From positions 14,581 to 78,580 of the forward strand of contig CACBPP010000002.1 in the NCBI GenBank assembly GCA_902541175.1: a stretch of DNA of 64,000 nt, in the 5' to 3' direction. The position numbers and the translations under genes are program-made. Shown piece after piece: positions 58,500 to 63,653 of this stretch. Source of the stretch: an uncultured SAR86 cluster bacterium. Lineage in GTDB: Bacteria; Pseudomonadota; Gammaproteobacteria; Magnimaribacterales; D2472. The notes beneath the pieces were generated by a model. That model did no database searches, was not told where the DNA came from, and saw only the letters and a list, made by a program, of their open reading frames with translations. The first letter of the stretch is position 1. Every line of letters begins with the position of its first letter.

Positions 58500-58580
58500 T
58501 TATTTAAAGTTTCTGTAGGTGCCAATGCAAATAAAAACAAGATGTAAGGCTACAACTGCTATTAATAGTAATTCATTCAT
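58500..58580 (-). CDS. small hydrophobic ORF (26 aa)
   Basis: Hand translation MNELLLIAVVALHLVFICIGTYRNFK*; weak SD. Confidence 0.3.
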   Translation of the reverse strand: MNELLLIAVVALHLVFICIGTYRNFK

Positions 58581-58601
58581 CTTTATAAAATTTTATCCAA
58601 T

Positions 58602-58648
58602 AATGGTGGAGCTACGCGGGATCGAACCGCGGACCTCTTGAATGCCAT
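58602..58648 (-). repeat. att site: duplicated 3' half of tRNA-Ala(GGC)
   Basis: Identical to 62463-62509; covers CCA, T arm and the whole anticodon loop, no D arm. Confidence 0.92.
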
Positions 58649-58749
58649 AAGCCTGCTCTCTTCATATTGAAAATACATTGAAAGCTTTAAACCTAGTCAA
58701 AACCACATTTTAATTATAAACAATTGCGAGAGTTGTTAAACATTGCAGA

Positions 58750-58772
58750 TTTTGGTCACCATATGGTCACCA
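58750..58772 (+). repeat. TTTTGGTCACCATATGGTCACCA site, left copy
   Basis: Exact match to 62414-62436; internal TGGTCACCA tandem with 11-bp period. Confidence 0.85.
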
Positions 58773-58967
58773 AGAATCATCATTGATTGTAACTAGTTTA
58801 TGTAAAAGATATTTTTAAAGTGATTTGATTCATCAATCACAATAATCCAGTATGAAAAAAATTCACTTTTACGTAACAAAAAATTTCAGAAAGTTTCCAT
58901 ACTTTCATACAAAAGGAACATGATTGAAGTTCAATAGACGTGCACAAATTAACATTTTTGGATAATT

Positions 58968-59390
58968 ATGAAACATTACATTTTATTTTTTCTAATGATT
59001 TTCTCTTCATTTAGTTATTCACATGAAATAAAGACTGTAATTGTTGAATTAAATGGTATGGACTTTGTAAACGATGATCTAACCTACGGTAATCAAATTC
59101 TTTGGATTCCTGAAATTGATGAGGAGGTTGTTGCATCTGGAAGTGTACAAGGCTTTTTAGCCAGATATAAAAAAGGTGATCTTCCTGACCCTGAAAAAGG
59201 TTTTGATTCAACAGAACAAAGATGGAGCCATTTACCAAATTTAAGTTTGTATTTTGATGAGCCAGCTTTCATATATTTAAGTCATGGCAATGGATATGTG
59301 AGACTTTCCTATCAATCACAAATTAGTATACAAGAAATGATGGATTACACCTCTGGTAGAAAGTTAAAAATAGTTATTCACAAAAACTAA
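58968..59390 (+). CDS. secreted hypothetical protein (islet cargo)
   Basis: Signal peptide MKHYILFFLMIFSSFSYS; no recognised family. Confidence 0.7.
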   Translation: MKHYILFFLMIFSSFSYSHEIKTVIVELNGMDFVNDDLTYGNQILWIPEIDEEVVASGSVQGFLARYKKGDLPDPEKGFDSTEQRWSHLPNLSLYFDEPAFIYLSHGNGYVRLSYQSQISIQEMMDYTSGRKLKIVIHKN

Positions 59391-59437
59391 TATTAAGCTA
59401 AAAACGTTTAAAAAATTTTAACTAATCAAAAATTATG

Positions 59438-60784
59438 TCAATAATTTATCTTCTTGGCATCAAACTTGTCTCTGAAATTTTTAATACGATTCCAGTCACC
59501 ATTAATAACAATTGTTTTACCTTCATCTTGAATGTTTAGATACATATTATTACCATCAGATGAAAAACAAATGCCAGCAATTTCTGAGCTACTATTACCA
59601 GCAACTCTTCCGAGTGGATAAAGCATACCATTTTGAGTACAACCAATTAATCTGCATGCATTGCTATCATTATCCTCACAGATAATGAGATCACCCCACG
59701 GTGTGACATTAATATTATCTCCTTCCCATAAGTCTTTTGTATCAGTTGATTCATAAAATAATGTGATTTTAGATTTACTTGGAGCATACGACCAAATTTG
59801 ACCCAGGCCTGCTTGACCGCCGTCTTTACAAGTAAAATAAATAACACTTTCTGAGTTAGCATCATTTGTAAAAATTATTCCTTCTCCACCACAAAAGATA
59901 GTTGCACCTTTTGATTTACCCTGAGTTTTTGTTCTTTTTTTCGAAGCACTTGGATCATCAATTAGGACCCAATCAACTGGAAAAGAATCGCCTGATTTTA
60001 TAGAACCATCTTTGTTCTCAGTGCTTTCTAAGTTCTTAATTCTAAGAGCTTCGAGAACACCTTCTCCGTCTAACTTATCTTTGATAGATGGTGTAAATTT
60101 ATAAAACAAGCCCATGGGATCGTCTTCTGTTTGATATATAGTGCCTTTTTTATCATTAATATCTACCGTGATAGCTTCTCTTTTAAATCTGCCCATTTCT
60201 GATAATCTTTTGAAACCATCTAAGGATTTTGTCTTTGGATTAATCTCAAACGCATAACCATGATCTCTATCGTAGGTTTCTTCACATGAAATCCAAGTAT
60301 TCCATGGTGTTTTTCCCCCAGCACAGTTCTTTTTTGTTCCTGTAAGACTTCTTCTTGAATCAATTACTTTTTTACCACTAGAGTCTAATATTAAGGTAGT
60401 AGTTCCACCATCATAAGGAATACCGAAACGTTTATCATATGCAGATATGGGATCAAGCCTCTTATCTAAATTATCTGTTTCATGATTTATTATAAGAGCA
60501 TTATTTCCATCATCTAACTTAAATGCTGCCATTCCATCGGGTCTTCTGCCATATGGAAGACCATCAGCCATAATATCTCCAGATGAAATTAGCACTTTGT
60601 ATGAGAAATTCATAGGTAAATCAAATAAACCAAGTGGGTCTGATAATAGAGAACCATCCCAAAAGTCATTAGTTGTACTTTTTAGGACAGAGCTCTTTAA
60701 AGGTCCAGTATAAGTATACAAAATAAATAAGGCAGAAGTCTTTGCAGTAAGTTTTAAAAACTCTCTTCTATTATTAATTGACAT
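59438..60784 (-). CDS. phoX: PhoX-family (DUF839) alkaline phosphatase, Tat-exported
   Basis: NRREFLK Tat motif; INHE, NCAGG.TPWNTWISCEE, GRFKRE, EDD, GEG, GDN, CED, SEIAG metal-ligand motifs. Confidence 0.85.
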   Translation of the reverse strand: MSINNRREFLKLTAKTSALFILYTYTGPLKSSVLKSTTNDFWDGSLLSDPLGLFDLPMNFSYKVLISSGDIMADGLPYGRRPDGMAAFKLDDGNNALIINHETDNLDKRLDPISAYDKRFGIPYDGGTTTLILDSSGKKVIDSRRSLTGTKKNCAGGKTPWNTWISCEETYDRDHGYAFEINPKTKSLDGFKRLSEMGRFKREAITVDINDKKGTIYQTEDDPMGLFYKFTPSIKDKLDGEGVLEALRIKNLESTENKDGSIKSGDSFPVDWVLIDDPSASKKRTKTQGKSKGATIFCGGEGIIFTNDANSESVIYFTCKDGGQAGLGQIWSYAPSKSKITLFYESTDTKDLWEGDNINVTPWGDLIICEDNDSNACRLIGCTQNGMLYPLGRVAGNSSSEIAGICFSSDGNNMYLNIQDEGKTIVINGDWNRIKNFRDKFDAKKINY

Positions 60785-60974
60785 TTATGTATATTAATAA
60801 CTTTTTAGATTTTTTAAATATATCTTTTTATATTTCACATAATTGTCTCATTTATGAAACTTTTTGATTGAAATATAATAACCAAACCTATACATGATTG
60901 TTGCATTTATTTAACAATGATAAGTTAAATTAATTTTTTAAAATTGTTTAGCTTAAAACTAAAATTAAATAGTA

Positions 60975-61688
60975 GTGATAATGAAAGACGAGGTTACAAT
61001 CGTTGTCCCGTGTAAAAATGAAGAGTCCTATATCTATTATTTGCTTGATAGTTTAAAGAAGCAAAAAGGCATGGAAGGCATAAGAATACTTATCGCAGAT
61101 TGCTCAACTGATAATACAAGAAGAGTTATTGAAAATCATAAAGAATGGTTGAATGTTAAAATTATTAAAGGTGGACCTGTTTCAGTCGCCAGAAATAACG
61201 GATCATATTTAGCAATCACGCCATATATTCTTTTCATAGACGCTGATGTTAGATTTTTTTCAAATACAGTAATCTACGATACTTTAAAACAAATGAAAGA
61301 GGAGGATTTACATTTAATGGGACTAAATATTAAATGTTATGACAAAGATCCAAGGGCTCAATTAAGTTTTTCAATATTTAATGTATTAAATAAAATAATG
61401 TCAAAGTGGATTCCTTTTGCTGTAGGAGCATATTTTCTAACTCGTAAAGATAGGTTTTATGAACATGGTAAATTTCCATGTAAGTATCCTACATCAGAGG
61501 ATTTTCACTTATCGAGGAAATATGATCCAAAGAAATTTAAAATTGCCAAACATTACTTTGGACAAGACAGCAGAAGGTTTAAAAAGATGGGATATTTAGG
61601 CATGTCCATTTATTTAATTAAAAATTTTTTATTTAAGGATAACCATAACTATTGGAATAACATAAATGAAAAACGATATTGGTCATAG
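60975..61688 (+). CDS. GT2 family glycosyltransferase
   Basis: IVVPCKNEE, ADCSTDNT, ARNNG, FIDAD (DxD), SED. Confidence 0.88.
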   Translation: MIMKDEVTIVVPCKNEESYIYYLLDSLKKQKGMEGIRILIADCSTDNTRRVIENHKEWLNVKIIKGGPVSVARNNGSYLAITPYILFIDADVRFFSNTVIYDTLKQMKEEDLHLMGLNIKCYDKDPRAQLSFSIFNVLNKIMSKWIPFAVGAYFLTRKDRFYEHGKFPCKYPTSEDFHLSRKYDPKKFKIAKHYFGQDSRRFKKMGYLGMSIYLIKNFLFKDNHNYWNNINEKRYWS

Positions 61689-62412
61689 AAGTGTATTCAT
61701 TTCAGATTTACATTTAGGTAGCAAACACTGCAAAGACAAAGAACTCTTAAAATTTCTTCAAGAAGTTAGAACAAAAAAGCTATATTTAGTCGGCGATATT
61801 ATTGATGGCTGGAGACTTAAGAAAAAATGGTATTGGCCAGATAATCATAATAGAATAATTAAACAACTTATTCGTATTTCAAAATATGCAGAAGTTTATT
61901 GGATTAGTGGTAATCATGACGAGTTCTTAAGAACAGTTCCAACGATTAACATTGGGAATATTGAAACACATAATAGAATGGTTCACGTGGGTGTTGATGA
62001 GAACAAATATCTCGTAGTACACGGAGATATGTTCGATTATTTGATGAGAACAAAATTTGGTAAAAGAATAATGTATATAGGTGATTGGGGTTACGATAGA
62101 TTAATTAATTTTAATTACCTATTAAATAAAGTGAGAGCATTCTTTGGTTATAAACCTTGGTCACTATCAAAATTCCTTAAAAGAAAAGCAAAGATAGCCA
62201 CAAATTTCATCGGTGAGTTTGAAACACAAATGATTAATTACGCCAGAATGAAAAAGTATGACGGAATTATATGTGGTCACATACATCATGCAGAAATTCG
62301 ACAACACGATGAAATTAAATATATGAATGATGGTGATTGGTGTGAAAGCTGTTCAGCGCTTATTGAAGATCATGAAGGTAACTGGTTCATAAAGTATTAT
62401 CAACCATTATAG
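61666..62412 (+). CDS. plcP: PlcP-like / LpxH-like metallophosphoesterase (phospholipase C)
   Basis: FISDLHLG, LVGDIIDGW, GNHDEFLR, HGDMFD, YKPWSLS, FIGEFE, CGHIHH, YMNDGDWCESCSALIE. Confidence 0.8.
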   Translation: MKNDIGHRSVFISDLHLGSKHCKDKELLKFLQEVRTKKLYLVGDIIDGWRLKKKWYWPDNHNRIIKQLIRISKYAEVYWISGNHDEFLRTVPTINIGNIETHNRMVHVGVDENKYLVVHGDMFDYLMRTKFGKRIMYIGDWGYDRLINFNYLLNKVRAFFGYKPWSLSKFLKRKAKIATNFIGEFETQMINYARMKKYDGIICGHIHHAEIRQHDEIKYMNDGDWCESCSALIEDHEGNWFIKYYQPL

Positions 62413-62413
62413 T

Positions 62414-62436
62414 TTTTGGTCACCATATGGTCACCA
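62414..62436 (+). repeat. TTTTGGTCACCATATGGTCACCA site, right copy
   Basis: Exact match to 58750-58772. Confidence 0.85.
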
Positions 62437-62464
62437 TGAAAATATAAGATTTATGTTTTAAAAA

Positions 62465-62540
<76 letters not shown>

Positions 62541-62600
62541 ATTGAAAACGATATTGTACATGATGGATAAAGAAGATGCAGAAGCCAATACTGAATGTAA

Positions 62601-63653
62601 TTATGATTTAGTGGATATAACCTTTTTGTCAGACTTTTTTAAAAGATAGTGTGAAACAAAATATTCTTTGCCATTATTTAATGCAAAGAAAGCATCACAA
62701 GATAAAAAAAAGATTCTCCATCTGTTGTACCAAATTTTTGGTTTATCATAGTATTTTCTAAATATTTCTAATATTTTTTTCTTATTTTTATAATGATTAT
62801 TTAACCAAGCTTTACAAGTTTTTGAATAGTTATTTCCATTAATATTCCATTGGTTAATAATTACCAATTCATCCTCAAAATACTCAAAGATGTCTCTACT
62901 TGGCATAATTCCTCCTTGAAAAAAATATTTTGTCATCCAATCAAAATTATTCTTCAATTCATAGAAGTATGTTAATTTTTTATGGCAAAAAATATGAATA
63001 AATAATCTTCCATCAGACTTTAATAATTTATTAAGAGATTTTAAGATCGATTTATAATTTCTAAGATGTTCAAACATTTCAATTGAAACAATACGATCAA
63101 AATGATTGTCTAAATCAAGGTTATTAACATCCATTTTAATAGCTTTAATATTTGATAAACCTCTTTTTTGAGCTTCATTTTTGATATAAGTAATTTGATC
63201 ACTAGAATTACTGATTGACGTTATGTTTGTGTTTGGATATTTTTTAGCTACAAAAAACGAAAAACTACCCCAACCACAACCTAGATCAAGAACGTCTTGG
63301 CCATTTTTAATTTCAGCTCTCTCTAAGTATAGATTAAGCATAGAATTTTCTGCTTCATCTAAAGAATGATCGTTATCAAATAAAGAGCAAGAATATTTTA
63401 GGTTTGAACCAAGAACTTGATTAAAAAATTCAGGAGGAACTTCATAATGTTGTTCATTGGCATCATATGTTTTTTCAGCAACAGCACCTTTAGAAAGCGC
63501 GCTGATGATTACGTCCTTATTATTAGAATGAGTTGATTCAATTAAACGCCTAGAGGATATATGTCGTGCAGCGATTTTAATTAAGGAATCAGGAATAAAA
63601 CCTGATTCTGCTAGTAATAAGAGAAATCTAGTCATATGTTGCATAACATTCAT
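62601..63653 (-). CDS. SAM-dependent methyltransferase, cyclopropane-fatty-acid-synthase-like
   Basis: NEQHYEVPPEFF, LKYSCS, LDLGCGWGS, SIEMFEHLRN, GRLFIHIFCH. Confidence 0.88.
   Translation of the reverse strand: MNVMQHMTRFLLLLAESGFIPDSLIKIAARHISSRRLIESTHSNNKDVIISALSKGAVAEKTYDANEQHYEVPPEFFNQVLGSNLKYSCSLFDNDHSLDEAENSMLNLYLERAEIKNGQDVLDLGCGWGSFSFFVAKKYPNTNITSISNSSDQITYIKNEAQKRGLSNIKAIKMDVNNLDLDNHFDRIVSIEMFEHLRNYKSILKSLNKLLKSDGRLFIHIFCHKKLTYFYELKNNFDWMTKYFFQGGIMPSRDIFEYFEDELVIINQWNINGNNYSKTCKAWLNNHYKNKKKILEIFRKYYDKPKIWYNRWRIFFLSCDAFFALNNGKEYFVSHYLLKKSDKKVISTKS

Follow-up and report, generated by a model that had tools for sequence, protein, structure and literature searches.

Abundant ocean bacteria with streamlined genomes seem to have no classical mobile elements, and how they trade niche genes is an open question; tycheposons are one recent answer, for Prochlorococcus. 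The SAR86 locus described here poses it in a narrower form: what are two identical tandem sites doing just inside the two ends of a small tRNA-bounded islet that has no integrase of its own? We call the whole 64,000-nucleotide stretch of DNA that was analysed the window. In our view the 23-bp repeats are very probably, as judged from sequence, arm-type sites of a tyrosine integrase, kept at both ends of an integrase-less islet. The features of the islet, in window coordinates, are as follows.

58599 to 58648, minus strand: att core copy 1, which bounds the islet on the left; a displaced tRNA-Ala(GGC) 3' fragment that begins with the CCA end and reaches the anticodon loop.
58649 to 58749, no strand: left arm spacer, with the conserved block AAACCTAGTCAAAACCAC at 58689-58706.
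58750 to 58772, plus strand: left tandem pair, TTT followed by TGGTCACCA TA TGGTCACCA, exact match; putative integrase arm-type sites.
58968 to 59390, plus strand: 140-aa predicted secreted protein with a signal-peptide-like N-terminus.
59438 to 60784, minus strand: PhoX alkaline phosphatase (PF05787, E = 1.6e-58) with the twin-arginine signal RREFLK.
60975 to 61688, plus strand: family-2 glycosyltransferase, GT2 (PF00535, E = 7.6e-18).
61666 to 62412, plus strand: LpxH-like metallophosphoesterase, PlcP-like (PF00149/PF12850; LpxH models below cutoff).
62414 to 62436, plus strand: right tandem pair, exact match; putative arm-type sites of the tRNA-proximal arm.
62437 to 62459, no strand: spacer from the right pair to the att core, ~65-90% conserved among SAR86 loci, unlike the motif.
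62460 to 62509, minus strand: att core copy 2 (50-nt repeat), within the intact tRNA gene.
62465 to 62540, minus strand: tRNA-Ala(GGC) (ARAGORN; Rfam tRNA, 62.4 bits), the integration target (attB-derived) and right boundary of the islet.

The islet is bracketed by a 50-nt direct repeat (58599-58648 and 62460-62509, 98% identity) that corresponds to the 3' part of tRNA-Ala(GGC) up to the anticodon loop; a weak tRNA-clan match also falls at 58604-58653. It measures ~3.86-3.9 kb, the whole segment including core copy 1 and the tRNA running from 58599 to 62540, and it is a tRNA-integrated islet in that a tRNA 3' repeat brackets strain-variable DNA. All of the annotated cargo (PhoX, GT2 and the PlcP-like protein) is phosphate-related. 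The ORF for GT2, a candidate glycolipid synthase, overlaps the following phosphoesterase ORF, so the two likely form an operon, and we infer the phosphoesterase to be a PlcP-like phospholipase C of phosphorus-stress lipid remodelling. PlcP homologues have been reported in SAR86, and a glycosyltransferase is often found in the same operon (PMC4796936). The 140-aa ORF, which had no Pfam or NCBIfam match, accompanies the cassette in loci L190-L194, and in L192 a PhoD-family gene stands in place of phoX.

The sequence TTTTGGTCACCATATGGTCACCA is present as an exact match, on the plus strand and in the same orientation, at 58750-58772 and 62414-62436, as the preliminary description had claimed, and 100 dinucleotide shuffles gave an expectation of 0 copies. 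Each copy consists of two TGGTCACCA units with an 11-bp period; no further exact TGGTCACCA unit was found elsewhere in the 64-kb window, and the similarity of the two sites extends over 44 nt at 84% identity (58733-58776 versus 62397-62440). The left 20-mer starts 104 bp after the 50-nt repeat, while the right one ends 23 bp before it and 28 bp before the tRNA 3' end. In a virtual circle the two pairs lie 177 bp apart around the core, and the geometry proposed earlier, with sites at -67 to -89 and +102 to +124 of the crossover, is thus about right. Both pairs are placed as arm-type sites are, inside the islet ends, flanking the core, distinct from it in sequence and equally oriented. The left spacer block AAACCTAGTCAAAACCAC is kept in all four aligned SAR86 left arms, including two with a decayed tandem pair, and resembles lambda P'2 (CAGTCAAAAT); it is possibly a further degenerate unit or the site of an accessory protein.

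The likeness to a lambda Int arm site, which had been proposed earlier, proved correct when checked against lambda P'1 (AGGTCACTAT) and P1 (AGGTCACTAA), the window unit matching P'1 at 8 of 10 positions (8/10 to TGGTCACCAT). As in lambda attP, short non-core repeats, some of them adjacent tandem copies, lie on both sides of the core within ~100-130 bp, and the integrase of related elements has an N-terminal arm-binding domain. The differences are that the window units have an 11-bp period and are internally palindromic, that the relatives' pairs are found at the 5' end of the integrase gene, over its start codon, and lambda attP past the 3' end of int, and that the relatives' arm-binding domain is of the Arm-DNA-bind_3 (P4-like) type, while the window islet has no integrase.

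The internal symmetry of the repeats invites a structural explanation. Each TGGTCACCA unit reads as a 4-1-4 palindrome, and around CATATG the 20-mer comes close to being one too, with 18/20 self-complementarity, so a hairpin or cruciform acting as a terminator or as a structure-specific recombination signal might be supposed, all the more as the right copy directly follows a stop codon. However, the natural form folds at only -3.9 kcal/mol (z = -1.7) as against -8.8 for a perfect palindrome. The stem is not followed by a T-run, no terminator was called, and no Rfam family matched. Among occurrences of the 20-mer in public sequences ~95% have the direct-repeat form (CC/GG). Because this mismatched form is favoured and perfect palindromes make up just ~5%, we regard the hairpin as refuted and give it next to no credence.

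A regulatory explanation had been raised in the preliminary description itself. In a Pho box, two 7-bp repeats resembling CTGTCAT stand in direct orientation with a period of 11 bp and overlap the -35 region of a Pho-regulon promoter; if the pairs were Pho boxes, PhoB would bind the 11-bp-spaced repeats and switch on the phosphate-scarcity genes. The period and the GTCA core agree with this, as does the phosphate-related cargo, and Pho boxes have been predicted in plcP clusters of marine bacteria (PMC4796936). The position does not. The right copy follows the plcP stop codon and faces the tRNA 3' end, in keeping with the earlier remark that it is not in a promoter, and there is no copy in the divergent phoX/GT2 promoter (60785-60974) or elsewhere in the 64 kb. 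In SAR86 the motif also stands beside methylase/restriction, GIY-YIG-like and unknown cargos, and elsewhere 80 of 128 judgeable occurrences are at integrase starts or tRNA ends; moreover, only 4 of 7 positions match the CTGTCAT half-site. The motif follows the att site and is tied neither to phosphate genes nor to pst promoters; the outcomes named beforehand as refuting the arm-site idea were not encountered. On the grounds of wrong position, lack of further window copies and association with non-phosphate cargo, integrases and tRNAs we rejected the Pho box as very improbable, its period being the sole match.

The case for an integrase comes largely from outside the window. Public sequences contain the 20-mer core in 188 stretches, 75 of them from genomes and 113 from metagenomes, against an expected count of about 4 for the genome set by our own calculation, and these gave 151 non-redundant occurrences, 128 of them judgeable. 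Of the latter, 44 adjoin the start of a tyrosine integrase at distances of -17 to +296 bp, and a further 36 are near an intact tRNA of one of ten kinds (Met, Thr twice, Lys twice, His, Ala twice and Arg twice), whose 3' end is 28-114 bp away, with the window-like orientation in 30 of these 36. The motif-adjacent integrases carry the Pfam domains Arm-DNA-bind_3 and Phage_integrase. A search of the sort that had been proposed thus found the motif beside arm-binding-domain integrases and near tRNA 3' ends in many unrelated bacteria. Neither feature was nearby in 48 of the 151 occurrences, whose neighbours are ordinary island cargo and among which no other constant partner protein emerged. A literature search for the exact motif together with an integrase returned only unrelated primer-type matches.

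Integrase-bearing relatives show the same architecture in complete form. In Methylocystis silviterrae an entire element at tRNA-Lys has the order, strand and orientation of the window: a 56-bp tRNA-Lys repeat, ~117 bp, a pair, the integrase, ~47 kb, a second pair, ~37 bp and the repeat again, this second copy lying within an intact tRNA-Lys. An equivalent pair stands 0-30 bp before an Arm-DNA-bind_3 integrase gene in Methylocystis L016, L200 and L202-L207. L200, from a marine gammaproteobacterial MAG, is an 11.2-kb element with an integrase, and its two best internal repeats are a tRNA-Met core (72 nt) and the arm pair, with one pair at the integrase ATG and the other 64 bp from the far core. 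In L182, L098 and L131 three pairs flank a tRNA-derived core, the gap there being 181 bp. The gap between pairs is 210 bp in Methylocystis L016/L054, ~150-180 bp in L200 and 181 bp in the L182 concatemer, as against 177 bp in the window circle. Complete elements have one pair per arm, equally oriented and about as far from the tRNA-derived core as in the window, with the core between them after circularisation. Across the marine integrase family the unit reads TGGTCACCA, TGGTTACCA, TGATGACC or TGATTACTAT depending on the lineage, in integrases that are 77% down to 47% identical, yet the arrangement in tandem 11-bp pairs is retained. This trend is not monotonic across phyla: the TGGTCACCA unit is common to distant alphaproteobacterial integrases (~30% identical) and absent from closer marine relatives, and no residue-to-unit recognition code was evident in the arm-binding domains.

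Overlap of the pair with the integrase start and promoter region in many elements also allows that it is bound by some other element-encoded protein, a recombination directionality factor (RDF; Xis/RdfS-like) or a repressor of the integrase gene. RDFs likewise bind tandem direct repeats, and in ICEMlSymR7A RdfS binds beside an arm site (PMC11963761). Against this, the sites occupy both arms, like integrase arm sites, where RDF sites are typically on one; the only constantly adjacent protein is an integrase with an arm-binding domain; the unit is 8/10 identical to a lambda Int arm site; and L182, a minimal 4.4-kb element, has no recognisable RDF or HTH gene. We consider such a protein an improbable explanation.

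If the integrase is the better one, its absence from the islet must be accounted for. The islet has four cargo ORFs, none of them a recombinase, and no match was obtained anywhere in the 64-kb window with an HMM built from motif-adjacent integrases. No integrase-bearing occupant of SAR86 tRNA-Ala(GGC) was found in the 113 metagenome stretches, the L098-family contexts or a CMAS-neighbour sample; viral contigs gave 0 matches, and the contigs examined showed neither an attP junction, in which two pairs would flank this core at a spacing of ~200 bp, nor an orthologous empty attB site. Of 10 metagenome contigs, 8 break off within the core. In another SAR86 lineage (P0126) an identical tRNA-Ala has no motif and no duplicated core, and because of this absence we attribute the motif to the insert rather than to the chromosome. 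The P0126-lineage tRNA-Ala has a different downstream gene and is thus not a clean empty site.

The sequence of the islet itself nevertheless carries a sign of movement. Between the att copies the window and locus L022 differ at 8 positions in 3,940 bp (99.8% identity), whereas the 50 bp beyond the left core already hold 21 differences; beyond the tRNA identity is 74% with one gene missing, and the flanks are ~75% identical overall. Identity rises to 99.8% exactly at core copy 1 and collapses right after 62541. Indirect though it is, this att-bounded identity suggests that the islet moved recently between distant SAR86 lineages. The earlier proposal of an intact attP architecture stands, with both arms and both cores present; its corollary, that the cassette may still be excisable, gains only indirect support from the 99.8% identity, the cognate integrase and attP junction not having been found.

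Comparison of the SAR86 loci also shows what is conserved. Ten SAR86 right arms, which vary in the 28-bp spacer and are unrelated on the cargo side, all have the identical 20-mer, although most loci were picked by the exact motif and the invariance of at least one copy is partly ascertainment. It is exact at the right in 10/10 loci found via the PlcP protein, and a diverged lineage has a right pair with 3 substitutions. Conservation ends exactly at the cargo-side edge of each motif. At SAR86 tRNA-Ala the motif adjoins at least five unrelated cargos, including methylase/restriction, GIY-YIG-like and unknown ones, and as had been suggested it works as a barcode. The left pair is kept in L022, L191 and L123, has 1 mismatch in L190, and is decayed in L108, L036 and L192. 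L143 shows tandem accretion at the same tRNA-Ala site. We rejected the idea that L143 is a tandem junction bearing another left arm, since a degenerate core there is followed by unrelated DNA with no recognisable arm.

The pairs may also be genuine arm-type sites that survive only as relics of an islet which site-specific recombination has ceased to move, with spread and cargo turnover by homologous recombination or transformation, for which the conserved tRNA, core fragment and arms would serve as anchors. The lack of an integrase in the window or for the tRNA-Ala core speaks for this, as do the three decayed left pairs, the replacement of the left arm beside the same cargo in L193/L194, and L036, where the islet departs from that of the window in its left part alone. 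Against it stand the invariant 20-mer in right arms whose adjacent spacer has diverged and the survival of both pairs, unchanged in the window, in L191 and in L022 and almost so in L123 and L190; besides, the 50-bp core fragment at which the 99.8% identity exactly ends is a short anchor for homologous recombination. We think this account unlikely, while taking it seriously.

On the preferred reading, that of integrase arm-type sites, the segment 58599-62540 would be an islet that entered the anticodon-loop/3' half of tRNA-Ala(GGC) through site-specific recombination, with the TGGTCACCA-TA-TGGTCACCA pairs as P and P' arm-type sites of a heterobivalent tyrosine integrase. Its N-terminal Arm-DNA-bind_3 domain would recognise each ~9-10-bp unit, and in the intasome integrase molecules would bridge the arm pairs to core sites within the repeat that derives from the tRNA. 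Where relatives carry an integrase, the overlap of the pair with the integrase start probably makes the integrase auto-repressing. The islet would retain a ~217-bp attP-equivalent module of both arms and both cores, and because these are kept and the integrase is absent, we see it as a cis-mobilisable cassette needing an integrase in trans. This reading draws on observed anatomy, integrase and tRNA association, architecture, variable cargo and att-bounded identity, from which integrase binding, the crossover position, present-day mobility and the identity of a helper are predicted.

The islet is an att-flanked, putatively cis-mobilisable islet of an already known kind. CIMEs are integrase-less, att-flanked derivatives of integrative elements, first known from Streptococcus thermophilus ICESt1/3. 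Like them, the islet has attL-like and attR-like flanks without recombination or transfer genes, so its mobility would depend on an integrase in trans, and tandem accretion occurs at the same site; unlike them, it has no integrase-bearing cognate with the same core in our searches, many small cassettes with unrelated cargo stand behind one shared arm module, and the host is a streamlined marine oligotroph. In ICEMlSymR7A (the Mesorhizobium symbiosis island, IntS/attP) a P4-type integrase gene adjoins attL at a tRNA, the same logic as the pair overlapping the integrase start in the window's relatives. Its arm consensus, however, is TGKTGGTATC. At 500 kb it is a conjugative element that encodes both an integrase and an RDF; the 3.9-kb window cassette encodes neither. 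Additive flexible islands of marine bacteria likewise occupy tRNA-adjacent hot spots, at which tRNA fragments recur and the nutrient or defence cargo varies between strains (PMC10872708), and the window islet resembles them and tycheposons in its tRNA hot spot, repeated tRNA fragment and variable cargo. VEIMEs are small integrase-bearing marine elements seen as concatemers, ~20% of them without integrase; L182 (3 x 4,371 bp, with integrase and three motif pairs) fits that description, a link by resemblance only. Small related elements (L182, L202-L207) carry integrases, whereas the window islet differs from VEIMEs, tycheposons and phage satellites in having no integrase, replication or packaging genes, and is accordingly not classed as a satellite. 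Arm-type sites are not described in the literature examined on islands, tycheposons or VEIMEs.

A wider possibility, which we hold to be rather doubtful, is that SAR86, and perhaps other streamlined marine bacteria, have a cassette-exchange system in which many integrase-less cassettes share one ~217-bp attP module. In this module an arm pair would stand on either side of the tRNA-Ala core, and one integrase acting in trans might conceivably insert the cassettes at tRNA-Ala, stack them there and excise them; that integrase could, again tentatively, come from, e.g., a VEIME-like satellite or a rare island. In the window a complete set of recombination sites encloses a SAR86 phosphate-scarcity package, PhoX together with a glycolipid-remodelling pair. 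With the 20-bp motif as a marker, such cassettes and the integrase family expected to move them can be searched for precisely, and biochemistry gains a defined DNA substrate. The motif is also a candidate arm-site consensus for the widespread Arm-DNA-bind_3 (P4-like) integrases of Proteobacteria and beyond, useful for delimiting genomic islands exactly. If cassette exchange proves true, the 20-mer would be a barcode for a whole flexible gene pool, and the gain of phosphate-scarcity genes would be a site-specific rather than a homologous event.

The 23-mer TTTTGGTCACCATATGGTCACCA is present as two exact copies on the plus strand of the window, where chance would lead one to expect none. Each copy consists of two TGGTCACCA units with a period of 11 bp, and no further exact TGGTCACCA unit occurs in the whole 64 kb. 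Taken singly, a unit forms a 4-1-4 palindrome; the 20-mer that two units make up is near-palindromic around a central CATATG. The two sites are alike over 44 nt at 84% (the similarity block D2), and both lie just inside the copies of a longer direct repeat (D1):

Direct repeat (D1), 50 nt: 58599-58648 and 62460-62509, both motif copies just inside
Motif pairs: 58750-58772 (left) and 62414-62436 (right), plus strand
tRNA-Ala(GGC): 62465-62540, minus strand, the integration-site tRNA

The 50-nt repeat is the 3' part of tRNA-Ala(GGC), reaching the anticodon loop, and the att core sequence includes ...GGACCTCTTGAATGCCAT. The spacing to the adjacent repeat copy is 23 bp for the right pair and 104 bp for the left. 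When the ends of the islet (58599-62540) are joined virtually the pairs lie 177 bp apart with the core between them, so the arm geometry envisaged in the preliminary description was about right. The lambda arm site quoted there was also correct, lambda attP carrying P'1 = AGGTCACTAT and P1 = AGGTCACTAA, an 8/10 match. The 17 nt 5' of the copies (58733-58749 and 62397-62413; TTGTTAAACATTGCAGA versus TTATCAACCATTATAGT) are identical at 11 positions; the second of these stretches forms the final codons of the PlcP-like gene, and the likeness is not common to other SAR86 right arms. A left-arm block at 58689-58706, AAACCTAGTCAAAACCAC, is kept in four of four SAR86 left arms, even with a decayed tandem pair. 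Its TAGTCAAAAC resembles lambda P'2 (CAGTCAAAAT) and the unit start T[A/G]GTCA, and the block might serve as an additional (third) arm site with a single unit, or be bound by an accessory protein.

The islet segment measures 3.86 kb and carries four genes:

Cargo 1: secreted protein, 140 aa, function unassigned
Cargo 2: PhoX alkaline phosphatase with Tat signal (PF05787, E = 1.6e-58)
Cargo 3: GT2 glycosyltransferase
Cargo 4: LpxH-like metallophosphoesterase, overlapping the GT2 gene

The last two look like a glycosyltransferase/PlcP lipid-remodelling module, which has been reported from SAR86, often as an operon (PMC4796936). Neither the islet nor the remainder of the 64-kb window holds an integrase. 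Because the cargo is all phosphate-related, the alternative that the motif is a Pho box needed serious consideration. We rejected it: the right copy comes after a stop codon, none lies in the phoX/GT2 promoter, the window has no additional ones, and the motif tracks the att site regardless of cargo.

An exact scan for TGGTSACCATATGGTSACCA covered one-genome-per-species bacterial genomes, metagenomes and viral contigs, and matched 75 genome stretches (about 4 being expected by chance in that set, by our own arithmetic), 113 metagenome stretches and one stretch in viral contigs. Hosts were Brevundimonas, Methylocystis and other Hyphomicrobiales, Congregibacter, Marinomonas, enterobacterial MAGs, Binatia, a Solirubrobacteraceae MAG and SAR86. 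About 95% of occurrences have the direct-repeat form, with both centres C or both G, the remainder being perfectly palindromic. Folded as a hairpin, a perfect palindrome would be far more stable (-8.8 versus -3.9 kcal/mol), yet the direct-repeat form prevails; a hairpin role is therefore unlikely, and we rejected it.

Context of the 151 non-redundant motif occurrences
Tyrosine integrase start at -17 to +296 bp, mostly <=30 bp: 44/151
Intact tRNA 3' end at 28-114 bp, ten anticodon types: 36/151
Contig end too near for judgement: 23/151
No integrase or tRNA nearby: 48/151

Relative to the tRNA, the motif is oriented as in the window in 30 of the 36 tRNA-adjacent occurrences. Representative neighbours are Arm-DNA-bind_3 (PF13356) plus Phage_integrase (PF00589) proteins by Pfam, and in many elements the integrase ORF opens with the ATG contained in CATATGG (M-V-T...). 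Among loci L001-L189, the spacings between motif and tRNA 3' end cluster at 28, 44-48, 54-56, 66-70 and 77 bp, a rough 10-bp ladder that suggests helical phasing relative to the core. One Congregibacter MAG contig of 17,966 bp (L028 and L003) has the motif, as three tandem units with identical flanks, at both ends; it is probably a circular or terminally redundant assembly of an element that has an Arm-DNA-bind_2-type integrase nearby (L002). A short metagenome contig (L136:1-1054), in which telomere-like CCCTAAA repeats precede a long 11-bp satellite, (TGGTGACCATA)n, is probably eukaryotic and its match an unrelated coincidence.

The same layout is found in elements that do carry an integrase. 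In Methylocystis silviterrae FS two matches on one contig mark the ends of a ~47-kb element, which begins with a 56-bp tRNA-Lys repeat, ~117 bp, the pair and the integrase, followed by cargo, and finishes with the pair, ~37 bp and the repeat within an intact tRNA-Lys on the opposite strand. Order, strand and orientation are common to this element and the window, the place of the integrase being taken in the window by non-coding DNA. A homology search with the integrase of an AT-rich marine locus (L098) yielded an integrase family comprising 71 clusters. A marine gammaproteobacterial MAG of 285 kb (L200; GC 0.33) encodes one of its members, on an 11.2-kb element with restriction-modification genes aboard. 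Its two strongest internal repeats are a 72-nt tRNA-Met core and the arm pair, placed once at the integrase ATG and once 64 bp from the far core; this is the D1 and D2 pattern of the window. Throughout the marine family tandem 11-bp pairs are constant, and the unit differs by integrase lineage:

TGGTCACCA and TGGTTACCA: L098, L182, P0002-P0004
TGATGACC: P0005, P0025
TGATTACTAT: P0050

Such co-variation is what sites recognised by the integrase should show. Overall identity does not predict the unit in any simple way: TGGTCACCA is shared by alphaproteobacterial integrases that are ~30% identical, and a recognition code could not be discerned. A further AT-rich marine contig (L182:1-13142, alongside L098 and L131) is a concatemer of 3 x 4,371 bp, either a circular molecule or a tandem array, that encodes an Arm-DNA-bind_3 integrase and three ORFs of unassigned function and has three motif pairs (3531/3542, 3571/3582 and 3772/3783), 181 bp separating the outer pair from the inner ones with a tRNA-derived core in between. 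The concatemer resembles the VEIMEs of Eppley et al., marine satellites packaged as concatemers. The att region of the L098/P0003/P0004 subfamily holds a tRNA-Met 5' half (L182:3640-3700, minus strand; L208:85-165; L209:130-210), and the integrase-proximal pairs of L208 and L209 directly adjoin an intact tRNA-Met at its 5' end. The polarity is the reverse of that in the window, Methylocystis and L200, whose duplicated part is the 3' one.

We propose that the two pairs act as binding sites on the P and P' arms. On this model an integrase monomer would contact each unit with its Arm-DNA-bind_3 domain, and the monomers would reach across to core sites around the anticodon stem-loop, following the lambda and ICEMlSymR7A paradigms; in integrase-bearing relatives the start-codon pair would also give autoregulation. 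The window islet would be a cis-mobilisable cassette depending on an integrase in trans; this helper, the crossover point and current mobility, like the binding itself, are predictions from the observed islet anatomy and motif associations. The pairs might instead be sites for an RDF or a repressor, which is possible but less likely given that they lie on both arms and that the integrase is their only constant partner.

Since most loci were retrieved through the exact motif, part of its conservation reflects ascertainment, a bias tempered by protein-based samples. Two SAR86 single-cell genomes are 100% (L191) and 99.98% (L190) identical to the window. L190 differs at 2 positions in 10 kb; a G to A change at L190:7088 (window 58753) turns the first unit of the left pair into TAGTCACCA, a variant also found as a natural unit in L208. 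In 10 aligned SAR86 right arms the 20-mer is invariant and stands 28 bp from the tRNA 3' end, the spacer is variable, and the cargo side is unrelated, with at least five classes:

Class 1: plcP type, as in the window
Class 2: L057
Class 3: GIY-YIG-like protein (from sequence; no Pfam match) and membrane proteins (L080)
Class 4: N6-methylase, 783 aa, with specificity domain (L108/L154)
Class 5: secreted protein, 243 aa (L123)

The L123 mini-islet is ~0.8 kb, its left arm 96.8% identical to the window's, and in either arm conservation breaks off precisely where the motif meets the cargo; islets of the window and L123 types therefore have in common a ~217-bp attP-equivalent module that frames unrelated cargo. 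Left pairs have decayed in L108, L036 and L192, and in L143 a degenerate core fragment, with other DNA beyond it, comes after the plcP end, an arrangement suggestive of accretion. The same PlcP protein occurs with PhoD instead of PhoX in L192 and with a replaced left part in L193/L194. In L192 (858-2974, versus window 58830-60784) the PhoD-family phosphatase sits at a different position in a cassette otherwise alike (139/140-aa ORF, GT2, identical PlcP), and therefore cargo is shuffled inside the islet.

A motif-independent sample of the locus was chosen via the neighbouring CMAS gene. In one lineage (9 contigs) an identical tRNA-Ala is followed directly by an esterase gene, and the motif and second core are absent from the site. 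In another, 8 of 10 contigs end in the tRNA-Ala 3' half, at the att core; such breaks, seen in metagenome contigs of SAR86 relatives (L223-L227, L229-L231, L217), are the mark that a site variable within the population leaves on an assembly. The other two have a plcP-type islet with a pair variant of three substitutions. The motif is therefore part of the inserts, and populations are internally variable at the site. A polymorphic alkaline-phosphatase insertion has been reported for a SAR86 population (PMC12379486). The CMAS methyltransferase gene on the tRNA 5' side (window 62601-63653) is itself present or absent among SAR86 genomes (compared with L022, L123, L154 and L192/L195, the last pair having a Band_7 cluster instead), so that a second variable location lies across the tRNA from the islet.

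Evidence of recent movement comes from a different SAR86 single-cell genome (L022), which shows 29 differences from the window over 58551-62541. The 50 bp to the left of the core fragment account for 21 of them, whereas the 3,940 bp stretching from this fragment through to the 5' end of the tRNA contain only 8 (99.8% identity); past the tRNA, CMAS is missing from L022 and identity in the following gene is 74%. Thus a near-identical segment is bounded by the two att copies in genomes otherwise ~75% identical, which fits site-specific acquisition, homologous exchange anchored on the tRNA being an alternative explanation. As to present-day function, relic sites with turnover by homologous recombination are a serious rival to a mobilisable cassette, since an integrase for the SAR86 tRNA-Ala core was not found in the window, the viral contigs or the SAR86 locus samples, nor was an attP junction or clean empty site seen.

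Arm-type sites, tRNA-integrated additive islands and integrase-less att-flanked elements (CIMEs) are known kinds. In the searchable literature we found neither the exact motif and its link to a widespread Arm-DNA-bind_3 integrase group nor a description of the SAR86 tRNA-Ala cassette family. Motif and cassette open gene flow within a streamlined marine clade to concrete tests.
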